Below are positions 5,489 to 64,000 of a DNA stretch of 64,000 bases, in pieces. A program made the position numbers and the translations under genes. Under the pieces are notes generated by a model. That model was not told the origin of the DNA. It worked only from the letters and a program-made list of their open reading frames with translations, and ran no database searches. The stretch covers positions 130,137-194,136 of the forward strand of contig WJMO01000006.1 of the NCBI GenBank assembly GCA_014727915.1. Reading direction: 5' to 3'. The stretch is from Candidatus Altiarchaeales archaeon (lineage in GTDB: Archaea > Altiarchaeota > Altiarchaeia > IMC4 > SCGC-AAA252-I15). Each line of letters opens with the position of its first letter. The first letter of the stretch is position 1.

Positions 5489-6349
5489 ATGAGGCGGGTG
5501 CCGTTCCTTGTGTTGTTGTTGGTTGCGGGTTCTGCTTCAGCCCAGCTTAACGGAAACTACAACATAGTCCTGGAGGAGAACGGCAACTCTCTCGTCACCC
5601 TTGTGATAAATGGGGTTGGCACCATAAACATCCCCCTGCCCTTGGATGTGCGAAGCCCCGCAGTCAGGGACGCTTTGTACGTGCGCGCGAGCAACGGAGT
5701 TGAGGTGAGCATAGACGCTGATGGCCAGTCCACTATCGTCTACAAGACCGCTCTGCTGACCTCAAGGGAGGGTGGCAGGTGGCGTTACATGATGGAACTG
5801 CCCCCATTGGAATCTGCCACGGTCGTTGTTTATGTGCCGGAGACCGCAGTCATAGCCGAGACCAGCCCGCCTGCGGCCATAAGCCATGTTGGGGAGTCCA
5901 AGAGCATGATCTGGAACCTCAAACCCGTTAATGACTCGGCCATAGTGGCCGAGTACTCGTTCTCCGGGTCCGCGGGACATATGACAGAAGAGGGTGGAGG
6001 CAGGGGGTTGGATCTGAAATATGTGCTGGCTGTGGTTTTAGCCCCCCTGGCCGCGACCGCTGTGATAATCTATCTTGTAAGGCGCAGGCAGAGGGGAGAG
6101 GGGTTGGTCCTAAGCGGTGGAAAGCAAAATGTGCTGAAGACGCTGACGGGGAACGAGATGAAGATAGTCAGCCTACTGCTCCAGAACATGGGGGGTATGC
6201 AGAGGAACAAGCTGGAGAAAACGTCGGGCATACCGAAGTCCAGCCTTGCCTCGTCCCTCTACAACCTCGAGCAGAGGAAGATCATAAGGGTCGACAAGAG
6301 TTATGCGGTCCACTATGTCGAGCTGACCGAGTGGTTCAAGAGCCTCTAA
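5489..6349 (+). CDS. Membrane-anchored winged-helix transcriptional regulator with extracytoplasmic domain
   Basis: Signal peptide, ~180-aa external domain, one TM, C-terminal wHTH (KSSLASSLYNLEQRKIIRVD); paralogs at 32398, 42876, 55295. Confidence 0.6.
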   Translation: MRRVPFLVLLLVAGSASAQLNGNYNIVLEENGNSLVTLVINGVGTINIPLPLDVRSPAVRDALYVRASNGVEVSIDADGQSTIVYKTALLTSREGGRWRYMMELPPLESATVVVYVPETAVIAETSPPAAISHVGESKSMIWNLKPVNDSAIVAEYSFSGSAGHMTEEGGGRGLDLKYVLAVVLAPLAATAVIIYLVRRRQRGEGLVLSGGKQNVLKTLTGNEMKIVSLLLQNMGGMQRNKLEKTSGIPKSSLASSLYNLEQRKIIRVDKSYAVHYVELTEWFKSL

Positions 6350-14869: not shown

Positions 14870-14923
14870 ATACTACTTCATCAAATAAAACCATTTATAT
14901 TGAACAATGACTAATTATGTTGC

Positions 14924-15109
14924 ATGGAAAGCTCTGAAAGCGGGAAAAAAGACAGATATAAGTGCAAAGTATGCGGTTACGTGTACGACCCAGAGAAGGG
15001 AGACCCTATTTCTAATATAAAGCCCGGAACAGCCTTCAAGGACATTCCAGAAGGGTGGACGTGCCCGGTTTGCGGCGTTGGAAAAGACCAGTTCGAGAAG
15101 ATAGAGTAG
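14924..15109 (+). CDS. rub: Rubredoxin
   Basis: [10 protein letters not shown]...W.CPVCG signature; TATA-like TTTATATT ~20 nt upstream. Confidence 0.85.
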
Positions 15110-15157
15110 GTTACTCAGGGCATACCAGCCAGTATTTATGCACAGACAACAATAGAT

Positions 15158-15176
15158 AGTTTACAAAAGTAACCAT
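15158..15176 (+). promoter_or_regulatory. Conserved promoter motif AGTTTACAAAAGTAACCAT (copy 1), upstream of Dx-like/FDP operon
   Basis: Identical 19-mer at 18123-18141; contains inverted repeat TTAC-N4-GTAA; 55 nt upstream of GTG 15231. Confidence 0.5.
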
Positions 15177-15230
15177 ATTTTGAGTGGGTGGTGTATTCAT
15201 CCAATTTCATAGCAGATGGAGGTGACCTAA

Positions 15231-15443
15231 GTGGCCAGACAAGGCGACAGACACAAGTGCGGAGTATGTGGCGTGGAGATCATATGCGTAGAAGGCTGCG
15301 GTTGCAGGAAACCCCGTCTGGTATGCTGCGGGAAGGCGATGAGGAAAAAGACAGGCCGGAAGACAGTGAAGAAGAAGGCCGAGAAAAGCGTTAAGAAGAC
15401 CGCTAAGGCCAAGATTAGGAAGGCGGACAATAAAAGGATATGA
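15231..15443 (+). CDS. Desulforedoxin-like (CxxCG...CC) protein with lysine-rich C-terminal tail
   Basis: GDRHKCGVCGVEI...LVCCGKAM matches desulforedoxin Fe(Cys)4 motif; ~30-aa K-rich tail; GGAGGTGA SD 7 nt upstream of GTG. Confidence 0.6.
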   Translation: MARQGDRHKCGVCGVEIICVEGCGCRKPRLVCCGKAMRKKTGRKTVKKKAEKSVKKTAKAKIRKADNKRI

Positions 15444-15449
15444 GGGCGT

Positions 15450-16640
15450 ATGATGGCATGGGAGATGAAAGACGGGATACATAATGTCGGAGCGGTGGAC
15501 TGGGACAGGAGATTGTTCGACGAGCTGATACCACTGCCCGACGGCACAAGCTACAACGCATACCTGGTGAGGGGAAGCGAGAAGACCGCGCTCATAGACA
15601 CGGTAGACCCAACAAAAGAGGATGAGCTGTTCGAGAACCTGGAGAGAACAGGAGTGGACCGGCTGGACTATGTTATACCCAACCACGCTGAACAGGACCA
15701 TTCGGGGACGATACCCAAGGTCCTGGAGAGATACCCAGAAGCAAAGGTAGTGACCAACGGAAAATGCAAGGAGTTCCTGATTGACCTGCTGCACATACAA
15801 GACGACAAGTTCCAGGTGGTGGAGGACGGCGAAACCCTCTCACTTGGGGACAGGACGCTTGAATTCATAATAGCACCGTGGGTCCACTGGCCCGAGACCA
15901 TGCTCACATACCTAAGAGAGGACAGGATACTCTTCTCATGCGACCTGTTCGGGTCCCACCTGGCAACCAGCGACAAGTATGTGAAAGACGAATCCAAGGT
16001 GTTGGAAGACGCCAAGAGATACTACGCGGAGATCATGATGCCCTTCAGAAAGCTGATCAACGGGCATCTGGAGAAGCTGAGGGGATACGACATCGAAGTC
16101 ATAGCAGCCAGCCACGGACCATTGTATGACAGGCCTGAATCCATAATGGAGGCATACAGGGATTGGACCTCAGACGACGTTAAAAACGAGGTGGTGATAG
16201 CGTACGTGTCGATGCACGGAAGCACCGAGAGGATGGTTGAACGCTTCGCCAACACCCTTATCGAGCGCGGCATCCGGGTAAGGCCGTTCAACCTGGCCGG
16301 GTCTGATGTGGGAGAGCTTGCTATGGCTCTTGTGGACGCTGCAACCCTGGTTGTCGGCACCCCAACGGTCCTGGCAGGACCGCACCCCGCAGCCGTTTAC
16401 GCGGCATATCTCGCGAACGCATTGAGGCCCAAGACACGGTATGCGACGGTCATAGGATCATACGGGTGGGGGGGAAGGACAGTGGACCAGGTCAAGAGCA
16501 TGCTGCAGAACCTTAGCGTCGAATTCCTCGAGCCGGTGATAGTCAAAGGGCTTCCGAGAGCGGATGACATGAGAGAACTCGACCGGCTGGCAGACAGCAT
16601 ACTTAAAAAGCACCAGGAACATAACATCATAGGTGAATAG
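15450..16640 (+). CDS. fprA: Flavodiiron protein (metallo-beta-lactamase + flavodoxin domains)
   Basis: 396 aa; diiron site HAEQDHSG; C-terminal flavodoxin-like domain. Confidence 0.85.
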   Translation: MMAWEMKDGIHNVGAVDWDRRLFDELIPLPDGTSYNAYLVRGSEKTALIDTVDPTKEDELFENLERTGVDRLDYVIPNHAEQDHSGTIPKVLERYPEAKVVTNGKCKEFLIDLLHIQDDKFQVVEDGETLSLGDRTLEFIIAPWVHWPETMLTYLREDRILFSCDLFGSHLATSDKYVKDESKVLEDAKRYYAEIMMPFRKLINGHLEKLRGYDIEVIAASHGPLYDRPESIMEAYRDWTSDDVKNEVVIAYVSMHGSTERMVERFANTLIERGIRVRPFNLAGSDVGELAMALVDAATLVVGTPTVLAGPHPAAVYAAYLANALRPKTRYATVIGSYGWGGRTVDQVKSMLQNLSVEFLEPVIVKGLPRADDMRELDRLADSILKKHQEHNIIGE

Positions 16641-17117
16641 GTGCCTGAAATGGAAGGGGAAGAACTGCGTAAGAGCATACAGGAGTACATCGAAGGGCAC
16701 AACGTCTGCACCATAGCGGTGACAGACGGCGAGAACCCCTCGGCCCATACCATGTACTACGTGAGCCACGGCATCCACATATACCTGGAATCAGACCCCA
16801 ACTCCCAGAAGATACACGTGCTAAATGCAAACCCCAGGATATCATTGACCATAGACGAGGACTACCAGGACTGGAGGCAGATAAAGGGCATACAGCTTTT
16901 CGGACGCGCCAACCTGACGGACGAAAGGCATGCCCCAAGGCTTCAGGAAGCCTTCTCGAGGAAGTTCCCCCACATAAACGACCTCGGAGGCATACCCAAT
17001 CATCACATCTTCATAGAGGTAATACCAGAGAAGATATACTACATGGACTTCACTGAAAAGTTCGGGCAGAGGAACATATACTACGTTGACGAGAAAAAAT
17101 CCGTTATAAACTGGTGA
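16641..17117 (+). CDS. Pyridoxamine 5'-phosphate oxidase-like FMN-binding split-barrel protein
   Basis: 158 aa; PNPOx-like pattern; ATG overlaps upstream stop. Confidence 0.6.
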   Translation: MPEMEGEELRKSIQEYIEGHNVCTIAVTDGENPSAHTMYYVSHGIHIYLESDPNSQKIHVLNANPRISLTIDEDYQDWRQIKGIQLFGRANLTDERHAPRLQEAFSRKFPHINDLGGIPNHHIFIEVIPEKIYYMDFTEKFGQRNIYYVDEKKSVINW

Positions 17118-17177
17118 CCCGTCAGTTACTTGACCGTAACCCTTGCATTTATACGCCTGTAAGACGGATAATGACCT

Positions 17178-17822
17178 GTGAAAGAGGGACTGCCGCTTCT
17201 CGCGTTGCTTGTCATATTCTCAGGGTGCCTTCAGACGCAGGTAATAGGGTTGGACGGGGTTGAAGTCCGGGACTACGAGGGCAAGGACCTGTCCTCCATA
17301 AACGACTTCAGGGAGAACTCCATCCGGGGGCCGCAGCAAATAAACGCAAGCACATACAGGTTGGAGGTCACTGGATTGGTCGACAACCCGGGGGAATACA
17401 CCTACGAGGACATCCTGAACCACCAGCGATACTCCAAGATAGTAACCCTATACTGTGTTGAAGGATGGGATGTCACCATACTATGGGAGGGAGTGCTCGT
17501 CAGGGACCTGTTGGAAGAAGCGGAAGTCATGCCGGAAGCCGACACCGTGATATTCCACGCCCAAGACGGTTACAGCACGTCACTGCCCCTCAGCTACTTC
17601 ACGGAAAACGACATAATACTCGCCTACAGCATGAACAACGTCACCCTCCCGGCGGAGCGGGGGTTCCCCTTCCAGCTTGTCGCAGAGGACAAGTGGGGAT
17701 ACAAGTGGGTGAAGTGGGTTACTGAAATCGAGGTTTCGGACGAGCCGGACTACAGAGGATACTGGGAGACCCGCGGATATAACCAGGACGGGTCCGTTGA
17801 CGGCCCCGTATTCGAGAGATGA
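17178..17822 (+). CDS. Molybdopterin-dependent oxidoreductase (sulfite oxidase/MsrP-YedY family), lipoprotein
   Basis: Signal peptide + SGC; Mo-ligand context LYCVEGWDV. Confidence 0.7.
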   Translation: MKEGLPLLALLVIFSGCLQTQVIGLDGVEVRDYEGKDLSSINDFRENSIRGPQQINASTYRLEVTGLVDNPGEYTYEDILNHQRYSKIVTLYCVEGWDVTILWEGVLVRDLLEEAEVMPEADTVIFHAQDGYSTSLPLSYFTENDIILAYSMNNVTLPAERGFPFQLVAEDKWGYKWVKWVTEIEVSDEPDYRGYWETRGYNQDGSVDGPVFER

Positions 17823-17852
17823 GCTTAAATAGACAGCATCACATTCAAGACT

Positions 17853-18062
17853 ATGGCAGTGGCTGAGATCGCATACGCGGAATTCGCGGGCGTTGCGTTG
17901 ATAGTCTGGTCCGGGATATCCTCGCTGGCCCTGGTGGTTCTGACCGCCCTAACGGGCAGGAACTTGCTGCCTGTGAAATACCACAGGAAGCTGGCTTTTG
18001 CTGCGATCTTCTTCGCATTTGGCCATGGCATCCTGGCTGCAGCCGCAAACCTTGGGCTCTGA
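17853..18062 (+). CDS. Small membrane protein (2 TM), hypothetical
   Basis: 69-aa hydrophobic ORF directly after the Mo-oxidoreductase gene. Confidence 0.35.
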   Translation: MAVAEIAYAEFAGVALIVWSGISSLALVVLTALTGRNLLPVKYHRKLAFAAIFFAFGHGILAAAANLGL

Positions 18063-18122
18063 ACAAGGTAACCAATAGGATACCCCAAGGTTTATATTGG
18101 ACAACAACCAAATAGAGAATGC

Positions 18123-18141
18123 AGTTTACAAAAGTAACCAT
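18123..18141 (+). promoter_or_regulatory. Conserved promoter motif AGTTTACAAAAGTAACCAT (copy 2), upstream of glutaredoxin/TrxB operon
   Basis: Identical to 15158-15176; extended similarity (acaacaa...tagag) on the 5' side; ~42 nt upstream of ATG 18183. Confidence 0.5.
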
Positions 18142-18182
18142 GTCTGGTTTTATATGTGTTAAAAGAAGTAGGTGATGCAAGT

Positions 18183-18419
18183 ATGGACAAGATAAAAGTG
18201 TACTCGACCCCGACATGCCCCTGGTGCAAGAAGCTGAAGGGATGGTTGGACGAGAAAGGAGTCAAATACGAGGACTTTGACGTCTCCTCAGACCACGAGG
18301 CAGCCCGTGAGATGATAGAGAAGAGCGGACAGATGGGAGTGCCCCAGACAGACATCGGAGGCAAGGTCATAGTGGGATTCGACCCGGACTCCATCGAGAA
18401 GGAATTAGAAGATGCATGA
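18183..18419 (+). CDS. Glutaredoxin/NrdH-like thiol-disulfide oxidoreductase
   Basis: CPWC active site; ATG 18183 preceded by GGTGA; track start 18156 is probably too early. Confidence 0.75.
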   Translation: MDKIKVYSTPTCPWCKKLKGWLDEKGVKYEDFDVSSDHEAAREMIEKSGQMGVPQTDIGGKVIVGFDPDSIEKELEDA

Positions 18420-19314
18420 TACAGTGATCGTGGGAGGGGGAATAGCAGGTTTGACCGCGGCACTGTACGCCTCAAGGAAGCGGATGGACTACCGCATAAT
18501 CTCCTCAGAGATGGGAGGCCAATTCTACGCCAGCGGGGAGATACTCAACTACCCCGGAGTCGTCGAAACCGACGGCGTTGAATTCCAGAAGACCATGGAA
18601 GAGCAGATGAGGAAAAACGACGTCGAAGTGGTCAGAGAGACAGTCGAGAAAGTGGAAAGGGCAGGAGAAGACTTCAACGTGATTACAGACAAGAGAGAAT
18701 ACGAGACGAAGACCGTAATATTAGCAACTGGAGCCCGCCCAAGGAAGCTTGGAGTCCCAGGGGAGGAGAAGCTCCTGAAGAAGGGCGTGACATACTGTAG
18801 CATATGCGACGGACCCCTCTTCAATGCCATGGACGTGGCAGTCATAGGCGGGGGAAACTCCGCACTGGAGGCGGTGGACTTCATAGGGGACATAGCATCC
18901 AAGATATACGTGCTGACGAACGAGGCGGAATTCAGAGCGCACGAATACCTCCAGGAAAAGGCAAAGGACAACCCAAAGGTGGAGGCAATGTTCAACGCAG
19001 ATATCAAGGAGATAGCAGGTGATGAGTTCGTCAATTCGTTGAAGTACGAGGCAGACGGCAGGGAGAGGACGATAGATGTGAAAGGCGTGATAATCGAGAT
19101 AGGCAGGACGCCGAACACTGAGAATTTCAAGGACCTGGTCGAAACAGACAATGAAGGCCACATAAAAGTTGACTGCCGCGCGCAGACCAGCACAGCCGGT
19201 GTGTTCGCAGCGGGAGACTGCACGGACGGGCACGAATACCAGTACGTGATAGCCGCAGGCCAGGGCTGCATGGCCCTTCTAAAGGCCGCACGCTACCTAG
19301 CGATGAACAGGTAA
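18412..19314 (+). CDS. trxB: Thioredoxin-disulfide reductase
   Basis: Two GxGxxG/A dinucleotide motifs and redox-active CSICDG. Confidence 0.85.
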   Translation: MHDTVIVGGGIAGLTAALYASRKRMDYRIISSEMGGQFYASGEILNYPGVVETDGVEFQKTMEEQMRKNDVEVVRETVEKVERAGEDFNVITDKREYETKTVILATGARPRKLGVPGEEKLLKKGVTYCSICDGPLFNAMDVAVIGGGNSALEAVDFIGDIASKIYVLTNEAEFRAHEYLQEKAKDNPKVEAMFNADIKEIAGDEFVNSLKYEADGRERTIDVKGVIIEIGRTPNTENFKDLVETDNEGHIKVDCRAQTSTAGVFAAGDCTDGHEYQYVIAAGQGCMALLKAARYLAMNR

Positions 19315-19335
19315 ATAACATATTAGGTGATGTAA

Positions 19336-19824
19336 ATGGGCACAAGAGGACGGGAAATCGTCGGTTTGGACGTTGAAAAGCTCATAGTAGAGCTGAACAG
19401 GGCATTGTCAGACGAATGGCTGGCATACTACCAGTACTGGATAGGGTCGAAAGTCGTTGTGGGCCCGATGAGGGACGCGGTCGTGGCGGAGCTGACAGAG
19501 CACGCTAACGACGAGCTAAGGCACGCCGGAATGCTCGCCGACAGGATAATGCAGTTGGAAGGCGCGCCAGTGCTGAAACCAGAGGAATGGTATGACATGT
19601 GCAACTGCGGATACGACAGCCCAGATGACCCAGCAGTCAGGAAGATACTAGACCAGAACATCAAAGGCGAGCAGTGCGCGATAGACGTGTACAACAAGAT
19701 CATGAAGATGACAGAGGGCAAAGACCCCATAACATACCAGATGGCCTTCGAAATCATGAGAGACGAGGTAGAGCACGAAGACGACCTGCAAGCCATCGCA
19801 GAGGATATCAAAGGAATCAAATGA
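19336..19824 (+). CDS. Ferritin-like/Dps-like diiron protein
   Basis: 162 aa; four-helix-bundle ferritin-like carboxylate/His pattern. Confidence 0.65.
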   Translation: MGTRGREIVGLDVEKLIVELNRALSDEWLAYYQYWIGSKVVVGPMRDAVVAELTEHANDELRHAGMLADRIMQLEGAPVLKPEEWYDMCNCGYDSPDDPAVRKILDQNIKGEQCAIDVYNKIMKMTEGKDPITYQMAFEIMRDEVEHEDDLQAIAEDIKGIK

Positions 19825-19835
19825 GGTGAAAAAGA

Positions 19836-20219
19836 ATGAGCACAAAAGAAAGGGGCGAAGTGTACAAGTGCAACGTCTGCGGCAACATCGTTGAGGTGCT
19901 GATCGTTGGCGGTGGAGAGCTAGTATGCTGCGAAAAGCCCATGGAACTTTTAGAGGAGAAGACAGAGGATGAGGGCAACGAAAAACACGTGCCAGTCATA
20001 GAGAAGACCGAGGACGGCGTTAAGGTGAAGGTCGGGAGCGTGCCACACCCCATGGAGGAAAAGCACCACATCCAATTTATCGAAGTGCACTCTGACGGGA
20101 TGATACACCGGAGATACCTGAAGGCAGGAGACAAGCCAGAAGCGGATTTCATACTGTCCTCGGAAGTGCAGAAGGCCCGGGAATACTGCAACATACACGG
20201 CCTCTGGGGTAGCGGATAA
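19836..20219 (+). CDS. dfx: Desulfoferrodoxin (2Fe superoxide reductase)
   Basis: N-terminal desulforedoxin motif CNVCGNIV...VCCEKPM; SOR domain KHVPVIE...HH...CNIHGLW. Confidence 0.85.
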
Positions 20220-20220
20220 G

Positions 20221-20367
20221 GTGACGGGAAAGAGGCACTGGCGTTGCAACGTCTGCAACGACATACACTACGGCAACGCAGGCCCCAAAGTCTGCCCTAC
20301 CTGCAACGTGGAGAACGCATACGTCGAGGTAGACACTGAAGAAGCCAGGAAAGTGATGGGACTATGA
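20221..20367 (+). CDS. Small rubredoxin-like zinc-ribbon protein (48 aa), not in ORF track
   Basis: GTG start 2 nt after dfx stop; WRCNVCNDIHYGNAGPKVCPTCN (CxxC-x16-CxxC); stop overlaps ATG of next gene (ATGA). Confidence 0.5.
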   Translation: MTGKRHWRCNVCNDIHYGNAGPKVCPTCNVENAYVEVDTEEARKVMGL

Positions 20368-20630
20368 ACAAGGAGGAACTGCTCGAGGCCTGGAAGAGGT
20401 TCACGGAAAAGAACGACTTCAGGCTGAACCCGGACAAGGAGCACGTGGACATGATACTGGACGGCGTTCTAGCTAACGAGAAGGAACACGGCCTGAAGCT
20501 CTGCCCCTGCAGGATCCGGGACGGCACCAGAGAAAGAGACCTTCAGCTCATCTGCCCCTGCAACTTCAAAACCCACGAAACATGGGCTGAGAAGGGACAA
20601 TGCTGGTGCGGGCTTTTCGTGAAAAGATGA
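20364..20630 (+). CDS. Ferredoxin:thioredoxin reductase catalytic-subunit-like protein
   Basis: CPC...CPC...CWC spacing characteristic of FTR catalytic subunit. Confidence 0.7.
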   Translation: MNKEELLEAWKRFTEKNDFRLNPDKEHVDMILDGVLANEKEHGLKLCPCRIRDGTRERDLQLICPCNFKTHETWAEKGQCWCGLFVKR

Positions 20631-22089: not shown

Positions 22090-22244
22090 TTTGAAACCAC
22101 ATTTTTTCAAATTTTTTAAAATATTTCCGAATTATTTAGGAATTTCCCAAAACAATTTATAACCCGTAGGGTATATAAAAGACTTGGTATGCGCGGAGTT
22201 ACCTGGTTCTATTTTAAAAGAGAACCACATCTGATTAAAACACG

Positions 22245-23518: not shown

Positions 23519-23587
23519 ACACCCCCCCCCACGATAACCTCAAGGTTACTATCAAGTATTTTAAACGCTCCTGCCATATCTCAGTCT

Positions 23588-34348: not shown

Positions 34349-34375
34349 CTAGCAGCAACCGCATCCTGGACCCAT
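34349..34375 (-). other. Candidate 8-codon Cys-rich mini-ORF (MGPGCGCC) with strong Shine-Dalgarno
   Basis: GGAGGTGA 5 nt upstream of ATG; followed by a T9 run and then the ATG of 34076..34309. Confidence 0.3.
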
Positions 34376-34458
34376 AAAGCTCACCTCCAAAGATTATAGT
34401 TACTTTTTAACACTATATGTTGTGTTCTTTGAATAAATAGGTGTTGGTAACCGGATTG

Positions 34459-34998
34459 TTACCCTACGCCAAGGTCCAACTCCACCATTATCTTATGGGA
34501 TTGGTCAAGTGGCAGTATCAGGTTGGGGTATTCCCCGAAGAAGTCCCGCGCCTCAGAGGTTGTTAGCTGCTCCCGGAGCCTTTCCGCGTGTTCGAGTATC
34601 TCCTCCTTAGTCCTCTTCTCCAGGCTGGGACAGTACTCCAGGGAATCAAGTGTAAGGTAGGCCTTACCATCCTTTTTCATGACGAAGAAGGGCCATAGAC
34701 GACACCAGAAGGGCCCGACCTCGTATACCCTGCACTTCACTCCGTCTGTGAAGGGGCAGATATAGTGGCCGTTCTCCATGATCTTGAACGTGACCCTGTG
34801 GGTGTTCTCAGACTCCCTCTTGAACAGGCCCTCGGAGAAGCCCAACGCCAAGGCAGCCTCGTATTCCTCGTCTGTGAAGACCGGAAAGAACGAGGGGTAG
34901 TGGGGGCTGAACCTGCAACAGGGATCAGTGCAGGCGAAACAATCCTCGGAGGAAGTCAGCATATCAAGGTCTGGTATTTTCATCTTTTCAAACCTCAC
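34459..34998 (-). CDS. YkgJ-family CxxCxxCC putative Fe-S/zinc-binding protein
   Basis: CFACTDPCC motif near N-terminus; additional conserved Cys. Confidence 0.6.
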   Translation of the reverse strand: MRFEKMKIPDLDMLTSSEDCFACTDPCCRFSPHYPSFFPVFTDEEYEAALALGFSEGLFKRESENTHRVTFKIMENGHYICPFTDGVKCRVYEVGPFWCRLWPFFVMKKDGKAYLTLDSLEYCPSLEKRTKEEILEHAERLREQLTTSEARDFFGEYPNLILPLDQSHKIMVELDLGVG

Positions 34999-39627: not shown

Positions 39628-39819
39628 TCAAGACAATTAGAATTGGCAATTATTAATTGGACCCTGGACGATGAGCGTGGTGGATCCGGGAGGAGTTTCG
39701 CATCATCCGGAGTCACGATAGGGATATCGGCGGTTTTGGCTCCGGCAGCCATCACCCCGCTCATGTAGTTACCAGATGGTTACCTCAACATTATAATCCA
39801 GGGGAATAATAGTATTAAT

Positions 39820-54586: not shown

Positions 54587-54636
54587 TGAAACAGGGGATA
54601 TCCCAGCGTGAAACACCTGTAGCAGAATGTGAAACA
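54587..54636 (+). promoter_or_regulatory. Triple TGAAACA direct-repeat array (R1), upstream of surface-protein/ABC operon
   Basis: TGAAACA at 54587, 54609, 54630 (spacing 22, 21); TATA-like ttaaatataat adjacent. Confidence 0.55.
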
Positions 54637-54701
54637 TGGGTTTGGGAGGCTTCCCGGGTCGGATTAGAGTGGGAAGCCTCCGTTGTGGTGGCTGCAGTGA
54701 G

Positions 54702-55211
54702 CTATTGTTTAGTTCCTGCCGGTTGGCCTTCTGCAAAAGGGCATCCACCGCCCCGCATACCCCTACCAGGAAATCCACCCCCCATCTTCCCGGGGCATTT
54801 ATCCGGGTTCTCCTGGCAGTAGGCATGGTGGGCCTCCATTATCTCCTCGTGTGTGGCGTCCTCGCCGAGGCCGAGCTTGGATAGCATCTCACTGTGCCTT
54901 TCCTCCATCTCCTGGTGGCGTTCCTCCATACGGGCCTTCACTGCAATATGGAACTCCCCTATCGTATCGTCCTCGGTCAGGCCGAGGTCGGATAGTCTCT
55001 TCTCCCACATGGCTTCTCTTATCTCTTCTCTCGTAGCATCTTCCGTAAGCCCGAGCTCCTCCAGGTTCACAGGCTCATGTCCTTTCATAAACCCGTGTCT
55101 GGAGAATCCCTTGCTTCCCCCTGCCGCTTCCGTTGCGTTGACGGCCACCACCAGTCCTAGGACCAGCAGTGCTGCCAAGCCAGCGGCAAACAGTTTGGTT
55201 TTACCATCCAC
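54702..55211 (-). CDS. Secreted protein with three LGLTED(A/D)T..EEI repeats and Gly-rich tail
   Basis: Signal peptide; GTG start preceded by GAGGTGA. Confidence 0.5.
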   Translation of the reverse strand: MDGKTKLFAAGLAALLVLGLVVAVNATEAAGGSKGFSRHGFMKGHEPVNLEELGLTEDATREEIREAMWEKRLSDLGLTEDDTIGEFHIAVKARMEERHQEMEERHSEMLSKLGLGEDATHEEIMEAHHAYCQENPDKCPGKMGGGFPGRGMRGGGCPFAEGQPAGTKQ

Positions 55212-55239
55212 TTTGGTTCACCTCGAAGGATTCATTGGA

Positions 55240-55289
55240 TGAAACAGGGCATAAGTTTGGATGAAACAGTTGTGGCAGAAGATGAAACA
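55240..55289 (+). promoter_or_regulatory. Triple TGAAACA direct-repeat array (R2)
   Basis: TGAAACA at 55240, 55262, 55283 (spacing 22, 21), 30-80 nt upstream of GTG 55211. Confidence 0.55.
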
Positions 55290-55294
55290 TGACT

Positions 55295-55705
55295 TTAAAG
55301 CTTCAGCTTGACGAGGTTGGTGTTTCCCAGGGGCTTCTTCTCAACGACACCCCGTTGCTCCAGCTTGGACAGGACCCTTGAGACCTTCACCTTGGATATT
55401 CCGGTCTCTGCAACGAGGTACATCTGCTCCATCTTGCCCTCCTTCAACAGCACCTCTATTATCTTCCGCTCCTCAGCGGGCAATACCTTCAGCATCGAGT
55501 AGGCCTGCCTCTGGGTCACCTTCCACTGGAACATTAGTATTATCAGAGCTCCAACACCCATGGAGACAGCTGTCACCCCGTAGACCACCACAGGCATGGA
55601 CGAGCCGGTGTCTTCAATGTAGGACCCGTTAAGTATGGACAGTAGTATCCCCAAGCCGAACACTGACGTTAATGCTATCGCTAACCGCTTCTCCGAGACT
55701 TCCAT
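55295..55705 (-). CDS. Two-TM membrane-anchored wHTH regulator (paralog family)
   Basis: Two TM helices then wHTH (ETGISKVKVSRVLSKLEQRGVVEKK). Confidence 0.55.
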   Translation of the reverse strand: MEVSEKRLAIALTSVFGLGILLSILNGSYIEDTGSSMPVVVYGVTAVSMGVGALIILMFQWKVTQRQAYSMLKVLPAEERKIIEVLLKEGKMEQMYLVAETGISKVKVSRVLSKLEQRGVVEKKPLGNTNLVKLKL

Positions 55706-55708
55706 CTT

Positions 55709-55987
55709 CTATCCGCCTATGTCCTCCTTCATCTCAAGGTATGTTTTCTTGTCTATCTCCCCTGACACATACCGTTTCTTCAGCACGTCCAATGGTGTTT
55801 CAACCCTGCGGGAGCCGCGTACAAGCCACCAGAATATGAGGGCAACGACCACCACTATGACGAGATTCCACACCATGAAGGTCGGAACCAATCCGAATAT
55901 GGGCTCACGACCCAGGAAAGGATGCGGCGCCCTGCATGTGGAGAACATTGCGGCCCTGCCGCCGAACTCGGCAAAAGTCTGGTTCAT
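55709..55987 (-). CDS. SHOCT-domain small membrane protein
   Basis: TM helix followed by LKKRYVSGEIDKKTYLEMKEDI; real start may be an internal Met. Confidence 0.45.
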   Translation of the reverse strand: MNQTFAEFGGRAAMFSTCRAPHPFLGREPIFGLVPTFMVWNLVIVVVVALIFWWLVRGSRRVETPLDVLKKRYVSGEIDKKTYLEMKEDIGG

Positions 55988-56023
55988 AAGAATATCACCT
56001 CAGTACTATACAACTAATAAGAA

Positions 56024-56073
56024 TAAAAAAGGGTGAAACAGGCGATATCCAGGGTTGAAACAGCCGTATCAAA
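56024..56073 (+). promoter_or_regulatory. Triple TGAAACA direct-repeat array (R3), divergent intergenic region
   Basis: TGAAACA at 56024, 56046, 56067 (spacing 22, 21); first unit plus GATATCC flank near-identical to R1. Confidence 0.55.
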
Positions 56074-57920: not shown

Positions 57921-58007
57921 GCCCCCGGAGCAGCCACCAACCACAACCAACAATAAGAGCCAAATAGCATATGTGCTGGTTTTAGGCTAAAAAAGGCGTT
58001 AGGGACC
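57921..58007 (+). repeat. Direct repeat A flanking hicBA cassette
   Basis: gcccccggagcagccaccaaccacaaccaa...gagccaaatagca...gttagggacc; imperfect copy at 58749-58877. Confidence 0.6.
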
Positions 58008-58069
58008 AATAAATCAAAGGTTTAACATTCTTAAATAGTATTTAATTATCTTACATTCTTATATCTTTT

Positions 58070-58303
58070 ATGATGAAAAAAACTCAATTTCCCCTTGTTA
58101 TTGAAAAAGATGAGGATGGGTTCTATGTTGTAGAATGCCCAGTGTTGGAGGGGTGTTATTCTCAGGGTAAAACCTTGGATGAGGCGATGAAGAATATTCG
58201 GGAAGTCATTGAGATCTGTCTTGAGGAATCGTCCACTAAAGATTTTCTGAAAAACTATCACCCAGTAGAGTTTAGCTTCCATACTATTACTGTTGGTTCA
58301 TGA
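58070..58303 (+). CDS. hicB: HicB-family antitoxin (UPF0150-like)
   Basis: FPLVIEKDEDGFYVVECPVLEGCYSQGKTLDEAMKNIREVIE typical of HicB N-domain. Confidence 0.7.
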   Translation: MMKKTQFPLVIEKDEDGFYVVECPVLEGCYSQGKTLDEAMKNIREVIEICLEESSTKDFLKNYHPVEFSFHTITVGS

Positions 58304-58527
58304 TGGCATCGAAGCTGCCCATCGTTTCTGGCAAACAAGCAGTCAAAGCGTTCAACAAACTTGGTTATGCTGTTATTAGAAGGAGGAGTAGCCATATTCG
58401 CCTGGAACATGAAAGTAAGAAAAAGATAACAATCCCAGACCACAAAACACTAGGAAAAGGAATACTAAGAAAACTAATCCGCGATGCTGAGATAACAATA
58501 GAAGAATTCAACAAATTACTAAAGTAA
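58300..58527 (+). CDS. hicA: HicA-family toxin (YcfA-like)
   Basis: 75 aa; SGKQAVKAFNKLGYAVIRRRSSHIRLEH pattern; start overlaps hicB stop. Confidence 0.7.
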   Translation: MMASKLPIVSGKQAVKAFNKLGYAVIRRRSSHIRLEHESKKKITIPDHKTLGKGILRKLIRDAEITIEEFNKLLK

Positions 58528-58748
58528 AATTTTCACCCCAATTCTTTAAAGGAGTTCAACACCCCCCAAATCAACGAATCCTCATCCGACTCAATGAAGC
58601 TCTCGAAGCGATCGAAAAGGAAGCCAACAAATTCTTCGTGCAATTGTCCAAGAACAAGCAGTTCAGAACTTGGCTGGAGAAGACGTTCACAGCCCCGAAG
58701 ATCGAGGCGGGGTTGAGTTTGCCCTTTTTTTCGGTTGCCGGTTTCGAA

Positions 58749-58877
58749 GCCCCAGGAGCAACCACCAACCCACAACCAAGAAAAAGAGCCAAATAGCAAA
58801 TCAGCTAGAATTAAGCTAAACCCGTCGAAACTACCAACACACAACCAAGAACAGAAGCCAACAGCGTGTTAGGGTCC
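58749..58877 (+). repeat. Direct repeat B flanking hicBA cassette (with internal partial duplication)
   Basis: gccccaggagcaaccaccaacccacaaccaag...gagccaaatagca...gttagggtcc. Confidence 0.6.
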
Positions 58878-58885
58878 TTTTTCTG

Positions 58886-59722
58886 CTATGTTTTTTTGAA
58901 TTTAAGGTGTATTATCTCTGGTTGGGCGAAGAATCTTATAGGTAGTCCTGTCACTCCTACTCCATTTGTTATTATGACTTTTGTGTGTTCTGTTTCCACG
59001 ATGCCACTTATGTATTTTTCACCGTAGTCGCTTGTCTTGTAGGGGGTCCATAAACCGAAGAAAGTGACCTGTCCACCGTGTGTGTGCCCTGCTAACATAA
59101 GGTCTATTTTGTCTGTTTTAATCTCTTCTGCGTAGTCTGGATTGTGTGAGATAAGGATTACAAAGTCCTCTTCTGAAACATTCTCTATTGTTGGTTGTAT
59201 GTCCTGTGTGTCTTCCCATATGTCTCCGACGCCACCTACCCTAATCTTGTTCCCATTATCTGTAATCCATTCACCCTGGTTGTCGACGAGCGTTATATCG
59301 GCCTCCTCTAGGGCTTTCCTTGCTTGTTCTGCATCAGCCCAATGTTCATGATTGCCTAACACACCATAGACTCCCAGAGGTGCATGGAGGTCTTTTAATT
59401 CTCCTATGCAGGGGTCAATGTATTTTATGTCATCGTAGATGTAGTCGCCACCCAACAAAATAATATCTGGTTCGAGGTCGTTAATCATCCCTATTATGTC
59501 TCTTGTCCTCTCAACTGACAACAGGGGACCGCAGTGTATGTCAGCCACGAAAACAGCAGTCTTACCATTAAACGAACTGGGAACATCCTCGTCAACAATA
59601 TCTATCTCATTAACTCGAATAAGATATGCCTCAATGAACGAATAGGCAAAACATAAAAGAAACACCATTCCCATACCGACTAGTATCCTTTTCCACCGCA
59701 TCTCAAACCATATAACCCCCAA
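58886..59722 (-). CDS. Calcineurin-like metallophosphoesterase
   Basis: N-terminal TM; motifs GDYIYDD, GNHEHW, GHTHGGQ. Confidence 0.75.
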   Translation of the reverse strand: MGVIWFEMRWKRILVGMGMVFLLCFAYSFIEAYLIRVNEIDIVDEDVPSSFNGKTAVFVADIHCGPLLSVERTRDIIGMINDLEPDIILLGGDYIYDDIKYIDPCIGELKDLHAPLGVYGVLGNHEHWADAEQARKALEEADITLVDNQGEWITDNGNKIRVGGVGDIWEDTQDIQPTIENVSEEDFVILISHNPDYAEEIKTDKIDLMLAGHTHGGQVTFFGLWTPYKTSDYGEKYISGIVETEHTKVIITNGVGVTGLPIRFFAQPEIIHLKFKKT

Positions 59723-59953
59723 TCAATAAATATTTCTGGATTTCACTCTAACAACAAACAGATATATGGCTCTAAAGGTCCATCTCCCCATCAAAAGGCT
59801 ATATTGCACCAGAACAAACAGGTGAGCTACAAGAACAAACAGGGTAGGGTGTTGTCTTGTCTTGTGAAGTCTCCTTGGCCTGTTTGGGCTGAATATTGGT
59901 TTTTATCCTGTCTTGTATGCTAGGATGATGGTTCCTTGATCCTTGCCTGTATT

Positions 59954-60415
59954 TTAAGGAATAATCTCGTTGTGGATGTAACTATGAGCAGCTAAGGAAT
60001 ATGCCCCACTAATGGCATGGACCATTACACAAGCTATCAGTGAGACTAATGAAAAGATAAAATTGAAAATAAAAACTGGGATTATTATTCGGTTACGTCT
60101 TGAATTAACTTTTTTCTCTAGATAGACATGTATGCTGGAAAAACCAATCCCATAACAGATCGGGTTAATTATCAGAAAAATTTGTTCAATCATTCCCTGC
60201 ATTAAATTCATGTTCTGTGCATCTGAGAGTAGATTGAATACTGGTTTGGTAAATGTAAGGATGATATTTCCAGCTGAGAATATGCTCTGTCCTGCAATAA
60301 TAAAAATTAGTAGATAGAACATAATCTGCAAGACAATAATAAAAAAAGCAATTAGGGCCGACTTTATCCATTTGTTTTCTTGTGAAAAAATCTTGCGCCT
60401 TAAGTTACCTAGCAT
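59954..60415 (-). CDS. Membrane protein, hypothetical (AT-rich gene)
   Basis: 153 aa, 4 predicted TM helices; low GC. Confidence 0.4.
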   Translation of the reverse strand: MLGNLRRKIFSQENKWIKSALIAFFIIVLQIMFYLLIFIIAGQSIFSAGNIILTFTKPVFNLLSDAQNMNLMQGMIEQIFLIINPICYGIGFSSIHVYLEKKVNSRRNRIIIPVFIFNFIFSLVSLIACVMVHAISGAYSLAAHSYIHNEIIP

Positions 60416-60439
60416 TTTAGCCTATATCGAGTTCCTTTT

Positions 60440-63400
60440 TTATTCGAAGTTTAGTACTCCGTCCCGCAATTTGAATGTTCCGTTGTCTAGTTCTATTTTG
60501 GAGTCTGCGATTGATACTGTCAGTTCCCTTGCAGTGAATGTTGATTCTATCACTCTCATTGTGCCGTTGACGTAGATGTCGTCTACTGTACAAGTGTTGT
60601 CTGAGGTAACATTCCAGTCTCCGTATTCGGGGCATGATTCTCCACTGCATCCTGCTTCGAGTTGGATGGTTATGTTGATTGCTTCGCTGGTTGAGTATAT
60701 GCCCTCTGTTGTCTCTATTTCTATAGTGAATTCGTAGCTGTTGCCGGATGTCCCTGTTGCGTTGACACTCCAGCTGGGACTGCATGATTGCCCGTATGTC
60801 AGTGGTCCACAGTCGTAGGGGTTTTGGCTGGTTGTGTAGAATGGTGTTCCACTATTCATCGGGATTGCTCCTTTTCCTATGGTGACCGCTGTGCTGTTTA
60901 CTGCGGTCCCGTTCATGTATTCGTCTCCTGGCGTGATTTCGCATATTATGCCATCTCCTATTGTGTAGTTGGAGTATTCCAGCGTATTGCTTGTTTCATC
61001 GCTTATCACTTCACCGTTTTTGAACCAGCGGTAATGGGCAGTTGGCGTGTCATCGTCATCCCCTAGTCCCAGGTGGTTGCATTCCAGGTTCTCGCTGTAC
61101 GGTGGCGAGGAGGGCAGTATGTATGCAAGAGTGACATAGGGTTTGCATCCTCCTCCGCTAACGCAAGATGATGTGCAGGTCACTTCTGTGTCGTTCCATG
61201 TTCCATCCCCTCCCCCTATGCATGTCCTGTAGCTTTGTCCGTCGCAGTAACGGTAGTTTTGGCTGTACTGGCTGCCGTCGTGTACGCACCCGTCTGATAG
61301 GCTTGAGCAGAATTCCCCGCTGTCGTCATAGTCGTCCGGGTAGCAGTAACCTCCACTACAGACATCATCTGGGTCGCTGCCTTCCTGTTCCTTGTCTTCA
61401 CAGTCTCCGCCATCAGATACTTGTGTTAGGCAGTCTCCGTCTTTGTTGCAGTATTCTCCTGCTGAACAGTTACTGTGCATTACACACCCGATCGTGTATT
61501 CAAGATAAATGTCTTCTGGAAGCCATTGCACTTCGTTCAGTTTAGGATCTGGCTCCCCTGGTGGTCCATCACAGTCTGTTTCTGATTCGACGTCTAGATG
61601 CAGCTTAAATCCTATTATACTCTTGTTTTCGTTTAAGTAACTGTCTTGCACTTCTGTTAGTATGTCTTCGTCAAGGCTGCAGTCACAATCATGCCATGAT
61701 CCGTCATCCCAGCTCATATCACAGATGGTCGCTATTTCAGTTGAGCCTATGCCTTTATCGTCGCATGATAGGCCTCCAAAATCTTCATCTAGAATGTTTA
61801 TTGTTAGTTCGTCTCCACTATTGCCTGAACCTATTGCAGAGCAGTCTCCACTGGAACTTCCTTTTAGCCTCATTGTTTTGACGTCTAAGGTGGCGTTTTC
61901 GATGATCTCTGAGATGTTGTATGTCCACCATCCCATGGAAAAATCCCCGTATTCCAGTGCGCTGCCTGTTGCTCTTATAAGATTGTCTCTTAAGTCGCTT
62001 CCACTGCAGTTGTTTTTATCGCAGCTTTGGAAATCTAGTTCTTCTACATCGTTGTATTCTTGAAGGGGTTTAATAGTCGGGTCTATGATGATGGGATATT
62101 CTGCTTCCAATAGCCATTTTTTCGGGAGATTCAATCGTAGGATCGTATCTCCCAACTCTTTGTAGATTGTATATGATGTGTCGAGTTTTTCACTGTGGTT
62201 GTCTGTGATGAACGGCCTCTGTATTGTGAAATACGATAATTCCACTGGTATTCTGCCTTGTTGTTTCTTTAGTTTGAATGGAATATCTTCTTCAACGAGT
62301 TTTTCACTGCCATCCCAGTTTATACCATTGACAATCGGGGTTAAGTGCTCTGGATAATCAAGGATATATGTTATTTCAAAGTCCTGTGTTGAAGATGCAA
62401 AGAGATTTGAAGAGTCTACAATGATGGATTCCTTTAGCAAATCGTCTGTTAGTTCATACTTGATGTCAACACCTTCACCAAGAATATTCGCATAAAATGG
62501 TTCGTCGTTAAACATGGATAAGCTGTTTGAATCATAGAATAATTTTTGATTAGTGGTTGGCTTTATTTTAAAGGATAGTGTTGTGTCTAATGCTGTGAAA
62601 TCAACGGTCTTATCCATGTGGAATACTGCACTATAGTGTTTTTTCTCGTATTTAATGTCCTCTTCGGCTGAAACCAGGGTGGTTGTGGTTGTTGAGGTGT
62701 CCATTGTTGTAGTGGTTAGTTCAATTAGGGTGGTGGTTGTAGTTTCAATTGTCGTGGTTGTGGTCTCTGCTGGGAGGGTTGTAGTGGTTGAGGATGGTTG
62801 GAGTGTGATAGTTGTTGTGGTATCTAATAATGGAATGGTGGTGGTTGTCTCACTCGTGGAGGTAGTTGAGGATGTGCTTGTTGTGCTTACCAGGATTTTG
62901 CTTTCATCCTGTGTTGATGAGGCCAGATCTGGATCCAGGATTACGGTAACATTACCACAGTCGTCTACCAGGCATGTCACGTTCACGGTAAAATCAAAGA
63001 ACTGATTTTGGTAAACTATTTCAGAAGATACCAAAGGATCAAGAATAGATATATCTACTTTTGGAAGTGCAAGGACCGTGTAATTGAATACTGCTACGTT
63101 GTTGGTTTCGTCCAGTTCTTCGACAGAGTCTTTGCTGTCTGCTATCACGTATACATGGTTGGTTCCTGTGTTGTTTGTGACGTTCCATGTTAAATCAACA
63201 AGATAATCTTCTCCAACGTCAAGCAGGCCCATTGATGAATTATATATTTCTTCTGCTCCGGTGGGTGTTGCTACTATAATGCTTATTTCCGCGCTTGAGG
63301 TAGTTGATGCTAGTGTCCCGTCATTTGTGACCGATGCGTTTATAGTGATGATCTGGTTTTCATAGAGGTTCTGTGGCGTGACATTCAAGGTTGAGTTGAA

Positions 63401-64000
63401 GTCGGGCATATCCGCACCGATTGCCGTGAAAATTGTGTTATGATCAATGAGCGCCCATACGTATTTATTGATGGTATCGACTCCAGTTATTGCTTCTTCA
63501 AGCCATTCTGAAGCGGTTTCATTCCACCAGTGAATTTTTAGAGTTTCTTCTGGAACGGTTAATGCACTGGAATTATAGGGGATTTTCAACAAGAAATAAT
63601 TGAATGATCCACTGATCTCAACATTCACATATTTACCTATGCTACTGTTATCACCGCCAGTTGGAGCAGAGATTATATCAAATCCTGAGAAATATGCAAG
63701 GGAATCCAAACTGTTTAGGATTCCAAGTATGCCCTCTGTTTCGTTAGTTGGTGGTTCTGGTTTTACTAGTATTGTTGCATAAGCCTGGTTATTTGCTTCA
63801 TCAGTTTCTTCAATATCATCTTGGGAGTCTATTTCTACAAATATTGTATGGTTATTTGCATCGGGGATATTCCATGATACGCCAACTTGTTTACTTCCTC
63901 CTGCTTCGACAACATCCGCAATGCTTGAACCTATGTATACTCCTCCATCACTTATGTTACCATCATAAAAACTAACATTAACGTCATATGCATTGCTACT
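60440..64000 (-). CDS. Giant surface protein (partial, N-terminus beyond window): CARDB-like repeats, ~90-aa poly-Thr linker, Cys-rich C-terminal domains
   Basis: Reading frame stays open upstream of track start (TTG 63709) to the window edge; DETNN-type motifs (ELDETNNVAVFNYTV; ETDEANNQAYATILV). Confidence 0.65.
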   Translation of the reverse strand, partial: SSNAYDVNVSFYDGNISDGGVYIGSSIADVVEAGGSKQVGVSWNIPDANNHTIFVEIDSQDDIEETDEANNQAYATILVKPEPPTNETEGILGILNSLDSLAYFSGFDIISAPTGGDNSSIGKYVNVEISGSFNYFLLKIPYNSSALTVPEETLKIHWWNETASEWLEEAITGVDTINKYVWALIDHNTIFTAIGADMPDFNSTLNVTPQNLYENQIITINASVTNDGTLASTTSSAEISIIVATPTGAEEIYNSSMGLLDVGEDYLVDLTWNVTNNTGTNHVYVIADSKDSVEELDETNNVAVFNYTVLALPKVDISILDPLVSSEIVYQNQFFDFTVNVTCLVDDCGNVTVILDPDLASSTQDESKILVSTTSTSSTTSTSETTTTIPLLDTTTTITLQPSSTTTTLPAETTTTTIETTTTTLIELTTTTMDTSTTTTTLVSAEEDIKYEKKHYSAVFHMDKTVDFTALDTTLSFKIKPTTNQKLFYDSNSLSMFNDEPFYANILGEGVDIKYELTDDLLKESIIVDSSNLFASSTQDFEITYILDYPEHLTPIVNGINWDGSEKLVEEDIPFKLKKQQGRIPVELSYFTIQRPFITDNHSEKLDTSYTIYKELGDTILRLNLPKKWLLEAEYPIIIDPTIKPLQEYNDVEELDFQSCDKNNCSGSDLRDNLIRATGSALEYGDFSMGWWTYNISEIIENATLDVKTMRLKGSSSGDCSAIGSGNSGDELTINILDEDFGGLSCDDKGIGSTEIATICDMSWDDGSWHDCDCSLDEDILTEVQDSYLNENKSIIGFKLHLDVESETDCDGPPGEPDPKLNEVQWLPEDIYLEYTIGCVMHSNCSAGEYCNKDGDCLTQVSDGGDCEDKEQEGSDPDDVCSGGYCYPDDYDDSGEFCSSLSDGCVHDGSQYSQNYRYCDGQSYRTCIGGGDGTWNDTEVTCTSSCVSGGGCKPYVTLAYILPSSPPYSENLECNHLGLGDDDDTPTAHYRWFKNGEVISDETSNTLEYSNYTIGDGIICEITPGDEYMNGTAVNSTAVTIGKGAIPMNSGTPFYTTSQNPYDCGPLTYGQSCSPSWSVNATGTSGNSYEFTIEIETTEGIYSTSEAINITIQLEAGCSGESCPEYGDWNVTSDNTCTVDDIYVNGTMRVIESTFTARELTVSIADSKIELDNGTFKLRDGVLNFE

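Follow-up and report, generated by a model that had tools for sequence, protein, structure and literature searches.

A 19-bp direct repeat as a putative shared operator at two oxidative-stress promoters of a Candidatus Altiarchaeales archaeon

Altiarchaeota are uncultured, widespread subsurface anaerobes and, to our knowledge, nothing is known about the control of transcription in these organisms. The question of how their oxygen-defence genes are coordinated is raised by a 64,000-nucleotide stretch of contig WJMO01000006.1 from a Candidatus Altiarchaeales archaeon (assembly GCA_014727915.1; the whole stretch is referred to below as the window). An identical 19-bp sequence, AGTTTACAAAAGTAACCAT (the 19-mer), occurs here in the promoter regions of two oxidative-stress operons: operon A, which encodes a desulforedoxin-like protein (DxK), an FprA flavodiiron protein and a PNPOx-like protein, and operon B, which begins with glutaredoxin and TrxB. 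The respective promoters are designated PA and PB. What does a sequence shared by these two promoters do? A first-pass annotation of the window had proposed a candidate operator for a redox-responsive regulator. Our analysis makes it somewhat probable that both copies are indeed DNA-level operators, still putative, for a sequence-specific and probably dimeric regulator of the winged-helix type. The wider reading, namely that the shared operator is lineage-specific and embedded in a conserved architecture of GTWAC dyads (W is A or T) and TATA boxes of Altiarchaeota oxidative-stress genes, is partly supported.

Copies A and B of the 19-mer occupy positions 15158-15176 and 18123-18141, both on the plus strand and in the same orientation, 2,965 bp apart. 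They are separated by 54 nt from the GTG start codon of operon A (15231) and by 41 nt from the ATG of operon B (18183), so that the positions and distances given in the first-pass annotation hold. All motif scans of host DNA covered the 64-kb window. These are the only two occurrences in it, and no third site was found with up to 3 mismatches tolerated; the 19-mer is, accordingly, not part of a common repeat. It is also the longest exact repeat of the 64 kb, followed by two unrelated 16-mers. The chance expectation for exact 19-mer repeats is approximately 0.015, and none of 100 dinucleotide shuffles of the window yielded two copies of the sequence. The inverted repeat TTAC-N4-GTAA, which had been noticed previously, is present and extends to G-TTAC-N4-GTAA-C, with the spacer AAAA and 5 of 6 positions per arm complementary. 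One arm is a perfect GTWAC unit, GTAACC (15169-15174 in copy A and 18134-18139 in copy B, plus strand); it is separated by the A-tract from an imperfect inverted partner, GTTTAC. This size and symmetry correspond to the dyad-symmetric sites of about 15-20 bp that serve as archaeal repressor operators.

The extended similarity of the flanks, also proposed earlier, is weakly true. Local alignment against shuffled sequence gave marginal values (p of about 0.055 upstream and about 0.31 downstream), yet a structured register, unit-N6-unit-N6-TATA, is common to the upstream flanks of PA and PB. The distance between the TATA box and the 19-mer differs by 7 nt between the two promoters. No exact repeat in the window is longer than the 19-mer, and the flanks of its two copies resemble each other barely above chance; the element is hence discrete rather than the central part of a long duplication.

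The TATA boxes of PA (GTATTTATG, 15132-15140) and PB (GTTTATATT, 18090-18098) lie on the plus strand 17 and 24 bp, respectively, upstream of the 19-mers. Their relation to the start of transcription can be predicted from the other genes of the window. About 19 of 30 first genes without a Shine-Dalgarno site possess an A/T run whose first base lies 27-35 nt (mode 31) upstream of the start codon, which is the signature of leaderless archaeal transcripts with a TATA box located approximately 31 nt before the start. If the TATA box generally begins about 31 nt before the start in this genome, transcription is predicted to begin at approximately 15163-15165 in PA and 18121-18123 in PB, that is, over the 19-mers. 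Copy A would then extend from about -5 to +14 and copy B from about +1 to +19. A position over the transcription start, downstream of the TATA box, is the classical site of archaeal repressor operators. Strong Shine-Dalgarno sites, GGAGGTGA in operon A and AGGTGA in operon B, and the GTG start codon of operon A fit the leadered mRNAs that such starts would produce. The arrangement ATACC-N5-GTATTTAT seen in PA and PB recurs in the promoter of the orthologous DxK gene on a related contig, L105, and we therefore regard the upstream TATA boxes as conserved promoters. A TATA-proximal stretch (TTTATATTG.ACAA..AC.AA.TA) is common to PA (15133-15157), PB (18091-18114) and the promoter of the preceding rubredoxin gene (14894-14917); the latter matches PB at 79% in this stretch and is devoid of GTWAC units.

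Upstream of the TATA boxes, both promoters carry a second dyad built of the same word. In PA, it comprises GGTTAC (15109-15114), N6 and the degenerate unit CATAC (15121-15125); in PB, GGTAACC (18067-18073), N6 and GATAC (18079-18083). These dyads (15109-15125 and 18067-18083, plus strand) are set in a 5-6-5-6-TATA register. The word is not restricted to these two sites. GGTTAC/GTAACC is the most intergenic-enriched hexamer of the window that is not AT-rich, with 18 of 61 copies located in intergenic regions versus a baseline of 6% (p = 1.4e-8). Perfect GTWAC pairs occur five times at a spacing of N6, versus 0.18 expected per spacer, and not once at any other spacer from 0 to 12 (Bonferroni p of about 2e-5). 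Gaps between a GTWAC unit and the TATA box, measured to the next run of at least 7 A/T bases, cluster at 6-7 nt (15 cases) and 17-18 nt (12 cases), which together account for 27 of 58 gaps (p = 5e-8). Palindromic 5-mers containing G or C, used as controls, gave 0-5 cases at 6-7 nt and 2-8 at 17-18 nt, with no such peak. The unit-N6-unit-N6-TATA register was recognized in twelve TATA-aligned promoters from the window and its relatives; this alignment was assembled by eye, and unbiased support comes from the hexamer, N6-pair and TATA-gap tests.

The TATA-linked register had escaped the first-pass annotation, and so had one of its members, the internal promoter PC (17114-17154, plus strand), which precedes the molybdopterin oxidoreductase gene. 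PC contains GTGAC (17114), GTTAC (17125) and GTAAC (17136), placed 11 bp apart, and thus a GTTAC-N6-GTAACC pair just upstream of the TATA box; the latter, ATTTATAC (17147-17154), follows after N6 and lies 31 nt before the GTG at 17178. The palindrome GGTAAC-N6-GTTACC, which had been recorded as a related sequence, was confirmed at 34446-34463 and is a canonical member of the family: on the minus strand, the perfect dyad GTAAC-N6-GTTAC is followed 6 nt downstream by the TATA box CTATTTATTC (34431-34462). Another perfect dyad, GTTAC-N6-GTTAC, N6 and the TATA box ATTATAAT (39768-39797, plus strand), forms the promoter of a gene for a 120-aa protein without assigned function (ATG at 39820). The promoter of a rhodanese gene (ATG at 23588) reads ATAAC-N6-GTTAC-N6-GTATTTTAAA (23534-23565, plus strand). 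A single unit in register, GTTAC (22198-22202), N7 and the TATA box TATTTTAAAA (22210-22219), occurs on the plus strand (22198-22219) before the gene of a 193-aa membrane protein (22245) located beside rubrerythrin; the TATA box of this promoter is also bracketed by an inverted repeat GGTTCT...AGAACC (22203-22226). The minus-strand promoter GTAAC-N6-GTTAC-N6-TATA heads a small unit (34349-34462), in which a GGAGGTGA Shine-Dalgarno site, an 8-codon Cys-rich open reading frame MGPGCGCC* (34375-34349) and an oligo-T tract follow. This could be a gene for a Cys-rich micro-protein or a small RNA under the same control. That the 34446 palindrome marks the 3' ends of convergent genes was considered and dropped in view of the N6-pair scan, the minus-strand TATA box, the Shine-Dalgarno site and the micro-ORF.

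Related Altiarchaeota contigs (L004, L006-L009 and L104-L108) were obtained through homologues of TrxB and DxK; a route to orthologous promoters through FprA was abandoned, as the loci of FprA homologues are not syntenic. In these relatives, the GTWAC word stands beside the TATA box of approximately 10 promoters of oxidative-stress genes, among them genes for rubrerythrin and peroxiredoxin, grx-trxB, ogg and an HxlR gene. The register was found before rbr-rub-prx-DxK in L104; before prx and DxK-ferritin-grx-fprA in L105; before rbr-trxB in L007; before ogg and the HxlR gene in L009; before a glycosyltransferase-rhodanese operon in L008; and before grx-trxB, an rbr-MoOx (molybdopterin oxidoreductase) operon and a Rieske-DsbD operon in L106. 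GTWAC units also occur downstream of the TATA box in three relatives. The L105 DxK promoter has a post-TATA GTWAC unit, GGTTACCAT, at its predicted start and shares GTWACCAT with the 19-mer; AGTTTAC is located downstream of the TATA box of rbr in L104; and a perfect GTAAC-N6-GTAAC dyad lies between the TATA box and the ATG of the HxlR gene in L009, which is a typical layout of an autoregulated repressor.

How, then, is the 19-mer related to this family? It carries the GTWAC (GGTWACC) unit but is located downstream of the TATA box, unlike the family's position 6-7 nt upstream, which in PA and PB is occupied by the separate upstream dyads. Since its right arm is the word of the TATA-proximal dyads, the 19-mer most likely provides the factor of those dyads, or a paralogue, with a second site close to the start of transcription. 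In the operator model, a regulator bound over the start site would block the recruitment of RNA polymerase, and DxK-fprA-PNPOx and grx-trxB-dps-dfx-FTR would be repressed together; oxidation would inactivate the regulator and both operons would be released together. The placement of the 19-mer relative to conserved TATA boxes and its share in the promoter word of the lineage are direct observations, while the presumed redox responsiveness derives from gene content alone. The operator proposal of the first-pass annotation is thus strengthened by the core-promoter position over a predicted start and by the occurrence of GTAACC in a conserved and statistically well-supported family of stress-promoter words, and weakened by the spacing of the arms and by the lack of the full 19-mer in relatives.

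These and several other observations weigh against the operator reading. The arms of the 19-mer are spaced by N4 (TTTAC-N4-GTAAC), while all five perfect GTWAC pairs follow a strict N6 rule, and with one mismatch allowed copies A and B are the only N4 pairs in promoters. None of the related contigs examined contains the full 19-mer; the orthologous DxK promoter of L105, for instance, retains GGTTACCAT only. Because the relatives are distant (56-73% protein identity), this absence is weak evidence against a function. Scans of genome and metagenome collections also failed to retrieve any Altiarchaeota or oxidative-stress locus (for the 17-mer used with genomes, among the matches listed). Identity between the two copies includes the spacer and flanking bases and exceeds what a dimer site typically needs, and a sample of two copies cannot distinguish selection from recent conversion. 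The location over the transcription start depends on predicted starts. Moreover, a second, weaker TATA-like run follows each 19-mer, at 15175 and at 18148 (35 nt before the ATG at 18183); a leaderless transcript could be initiated from such a run, and the 19-mer would then be located upstream of a promoter. Finally, no regulator gene is linked to the 19-mer among the genes of the window. Pfam scans of about 70 open reading frames revealed only three winged-helix proteins, which are membrane-anchored, of the DUF7343/MarR_2 type and without a tie to the 19-mer, and neither HxlR, Fur (searched by tblastn) nor MsvR homologues were detected in the window.

The collection matches themselves belong to other contexts. 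The 17-mer scan of genome contigs gave at least 80 loci; among the matches listed, all are bacterial, and many are located in intergenic arrays of Flagellimonas/Muricauda beside a gene for an XRE-type helix-turn-helix (HTH) protein. The 19-mer scan of metagenome contigs gave 14 matches, none with homology to the oxidative-stress proteins of the window; their contexts are XRE-linked arrays of the same type (one matches a Flagellimonas locus), tandem repeats of 21 nt that resemble iterons, and further AT-rich or coding sequences. In Flagellimonas/Muricauda and related Flavobacteriaceae (L010-L089, e.g. L014 at 5674-5790; L094, L097, L100 and L103), three TTTAC-N4-GTAA(C/A) boxes, the first of which is the 17-19-mer, separate a peptidase-like gene from a small gene of the XRE-type HTH family. 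The 5-4-5 layout is the same, but these bacterial operator arrays are unrelated to the sites of the window. The iteron-like 21-nt tandem repeats (TCACAAAAGTAACCATTAAAC) in L090 and L101 happen to include the motif.

The downstream TATA-like runs keep one alternative in play, above all for PB, although we consider it unlikely: the 19-mer may be an upstream activating site for the runs at 15175-15182 and 18148-18155, with the bound factor recruiting TBP/TFB in the manner of Ptr2, or of SurR and OxsR bound at upstream sites. The distance of the PB run, TTTTATAT, from the ATG at 18183 is within the leaderless range of 27-35 nt; GTWAC units elsewhere lie upstream of TATA boxes; and the rule that sites upstream of the TFB-recognition element (BRE) and TATA box activate while downstream sites repress is documented for OxsR (PMC9426492). 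However, the gap between GTAAC and the run is 1 nt in copy A and 9 nt in copy B, as opposed to the conserved 6-7 nt. Operon A needs a leader, given its GTG start behind a strong GGAGGTGA site, and both the conserved dyad register and the match to L105 belong to the upstream TATA boxes, not to the downstream runs.

It is quite unlikely that the 19-mer is simply the relic of a promoter duplication or of short-patch gene conversion, in which case PA and PB would be paralogous and the block would add nothing to the function of the remaining promoter. PA and PB are indeed alike in layout, each with a dyad, a TATA box, a GACAAC..AATAGA stretch and the 19-mer; the gene order of the island is rearranged relative to the related contigs, with ferritin on the other side of grx-trxB; and identical spacer and flanks are not required by a dimer site. 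Yet the likeness outside the block is at chance level and interrupted by a 7-nt indel, so that 19 unbroken matches imply either constraint or a very recent event. The block also holds the conserved GTWACC word of the lineage and lies over a predicted start.

A role of the 19-mer in RNA, as a shared 5'-leader element through which a small RNA or an RNA-binding protein would coordinate the translation or stability of both mRNAs, appears highly improbable. Use of the upstream TATA boxes would place most of the motif within the transcripts, at the very 5' end of the two leaders, both of which contain strong Shine-Dalgarno sites, and conservation at every position would suit base pairing. Against this, the hairpin of the motif has a predicted energy of only -0.6 kcal/mol, shuffled versions of the leaders fold equally well (z-scores of -0.44 and +0.36), no Rfam matches were obtained at E <= 1, no complementary sequence occurs elsewhere in the window, and in PA the first five or so bases of the motif lie upstream of the predicted start and would remain untranscribed. 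Although a pair of identical, directly oriented repeats with a distance of 2,965 bp could in principle be att-like sites or target duplications bounding the 2.9-kb DxK-fprA-PNPOx-MoOx segment, this is extremely unlikely, as neither integrase nor transposase genes lie between or beside the copies, the G+C content is uniform across the segment, fprA-PNPOx already adjoins grx-trxB in relatives, and both repeats are positioned relative to TATA boxes and start codons. A mobile element or dispersed repeat was likewise rejected, given only two copies in 64 kb, no recombinase in the segment and, among the matches listed in the collections, exclusively unrelated bacterial contexts.

The operator reading can be compared with several characterized systems. 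The closest functional precedent is MsvR of Methanothermobacter thermautotrophicus, whose boxes TTCGTA-N4-TACGAA overlap the transcription start of fpaA and the BRE/TATA region of its own gene; MsvR has been described as methanogen-specific (PMC3729527). The operators at msvR/fpaA-rlp-rub resemble the sites in PA and PB in being inverted repeats whose 6-nt arms enclose a 4-nt spacer and in the presence of several boxes per promoter region, one over the start (a predicted one in PA) of a flavodiiron operon and others abutting BRE/TATA; in both cases, redox-released repression of an oxidative-stress operon would result. The sequences, however, differ: TTCGTA-N4-TACGAA (TTCG-N7-9-CGAA) versus GTTTAC-N4-GTAACC. 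TTCG-N7-9-CGAA occurs in the window only at 29632 and 35114, both times in coding sequence and at chance frequency, and in none of these promoters, so that the MsvR regulon was rejected. The same applies to the SurR regulon, with the consensus GTTn3AAC(n5GTT): the 19-mer reads GTT-TAC-AAA, and the sole extended match of the window is at 58653.

Among thiol sensors, the QsrR site is GTATA-N5-TATAC, and the degenerate units GATAC and CATAC of PB and PA resemble GTATA and TATAC. Operators of YodB/QsrR/HxlR (DUF24) and MarR-type thiol sensors are 15-20 bp pseudo-palindromes contacted in adjacent major grooves (PMC6798810). The 5-bp arms and 4-6 bp spacing of the Altiarchaeota sites agree with those of such operators; the window, however, is without an HxlR gene, and the related contig L108 has an HxlR gene without GTWAC dyads. 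The operator of the Rrf2-type regulator HypR of Staphylococcus aureus, TAATTGTAACTA-N3-CAGTTACAATTA, is a redox-sensing repressor site overlapping the core promoter (PMC6067689). It shares GTAAC/GTTAC arms with the sites described here, which is a resemblance only, since orientation and spacing of the arms differ (GTAAC-N7-GTTAC), HypR comes from a bacterium and an Rrf2 gene was not seen here. A literature search retrieved no motif of the TTAC-N4-GTAA type, and a search combining HxlR and GTAAC gave only the resemblance to S. aureus HypR. An HxlR/DUF24-type thiol sensor is nonetheless the leading candidate for the regulator because of the autoregulatory-looking dyad in L009 and the HxlR genes in or near the oxidative-stress islands of two related contigs, L009 and L108; this is only a lead.

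In some relatives, the same genes appear to be controlled differently. The fur gene heading the syntenic island fur-rbr-rub-fprA...grx-trxB in L008 carries a perfect box of the Fur/PerR type, TTAATAATGATTATTAA, immediately behind its TATA box (approximately at 5767-5783), and Fur-family proteins are encoded at the corresponding islands of L003 and L108. The gene set, the post-TATA position of the operator and the logic of a shared repressor are the same as those proposed for the 19-mer; the sequences are unrelated, and the lineage of the window appears to use another cis-code for the same genes. A Fur/PerR regulon was rejected for the window, where no 7-1-7 or 8-1-8 box of the TTAATAATNATTATTAA type was found within 3 mismatches, none in the island, and tblastn revealed no Fur homologue; among the relatives L008, L003 and L108, box and Fur-family gene both occur. 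The presence of a Fur/PerR box before this gene set in relatives and the lack of both box and Fur gene in the window suggest regulatory rewiring. The gene order has changed as well, with ferritin located on the other side of grx-trxB compared with the window; the adjacency of fprA-PNPOx to grx-trxB in relatives is taken as ancestral.

A bolder idea, which we regard as very unlikely, is that the GTWAC dyad/TATA register is no ordinary operator but marks a class of promoters belonging to an oxidative-stress regulon, comparable in archaea to the promoters of alternative sigma factors. It would be read by a dedicated factor associated with the initiation complex, the 19-mer would act as a redox-gated brake, and this system would have displaced Fur/PerR control. 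Possible readers are small Cys-rich, lysine-tailed proteins encoded by first genes, i.e. DxK (window, L104 and L105) and zinc-ribbon proteins of 39-43 aa (L106 and L008). The latter are tiny proteins with basic tails (KKWxCxxCGKPT...KVCxVC...VDKK), encoded inside oxidative-stress islands at 7937-8056 in L106 and at 13457-13588 in L008; the one from L106 is the product of the gene that opens the rbr-MoOx operon, which has a promoter of the GTWAC type.

Pfam scans revealed a dense oxidative-stress island around both copies of the 19-mer. Copy A is preceded by the rubredoxin gene (14924-15109) and followed by operon A (15231-17117, plus strand), which consists of the genes for DxK (15231-15443), FprA (15450-16640) and the PNPOx-like protein (16641-17117). 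Operon C (17178-18062, plus strand) encodes the molybdopterin oxidoreductase, which is MsrP/YedY-like, and a 69-aa membrane protein. Operon B (18183-20630, plus strand) comprises genes for glutaredoxin, TrxB, Dps/ferritin, desulfoferrodoxin, a small rubredoxin-like protein and the beta chain of ferredoxin-thioredoxin reductase. Nitroreductase and rubrerythrin are encoded on the opposite strand of the island. Beyond the source metagenome-assembled genome (MAG), the closest homologues of FprA and TrxB are 71-73% identical and those of DxK 56-59%, and the lineage is therefore sparsely sampled. DxK, a protein of 70 aa and the first gene product after copy A, has a desulforedoxin-like CxxC...CC domain with an additional CVEGCGC insert, a lysine-rich tail and no Pfam match. 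It shares 47% identity with the N-terminal domain of the desulfoferrodoxin of the window, and its family is kept within the oxidative-stress islands of three lineages (window; L104, 2626-2796; L105, 3839-3994).

Two further features of the window lie outside this island. The sequence CTGTTTCA occurs in 11 copies versus 1.9 expected; five of them are located in three promoter regions (54587-56063, minus strand) around a DUF7343/MarR-like winged-helix gene (55295-55705), as two pairs with a distance of 22 nt (55240/55262 and 56034/56056) and one single site (54587). These sites probably represent a separate regulon. The region 58000-64000 has a G+C content of 0.40-0.44, compared with about 0.53 elsewhere, and contains a HicA toxin gene and several open reading frames without Pfam match; it may be foreign or mobile DNA.

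If the operator reading is true, it would provide a concrete cis-code for the oxygen-defence genes of Altiarchaeota. Its two parts would be the TATA-linked GTWAC dyad, which several related genomes possess as well, and an operator at the start site linking the FprA operon to the thioredoxin/glutaredoxin operon. The operator reading would also offer an example of regulatory rewiring relative to relatives with Fur/PerR control. The motifs could be used at once for the prediction of regulons in complete MAGs.

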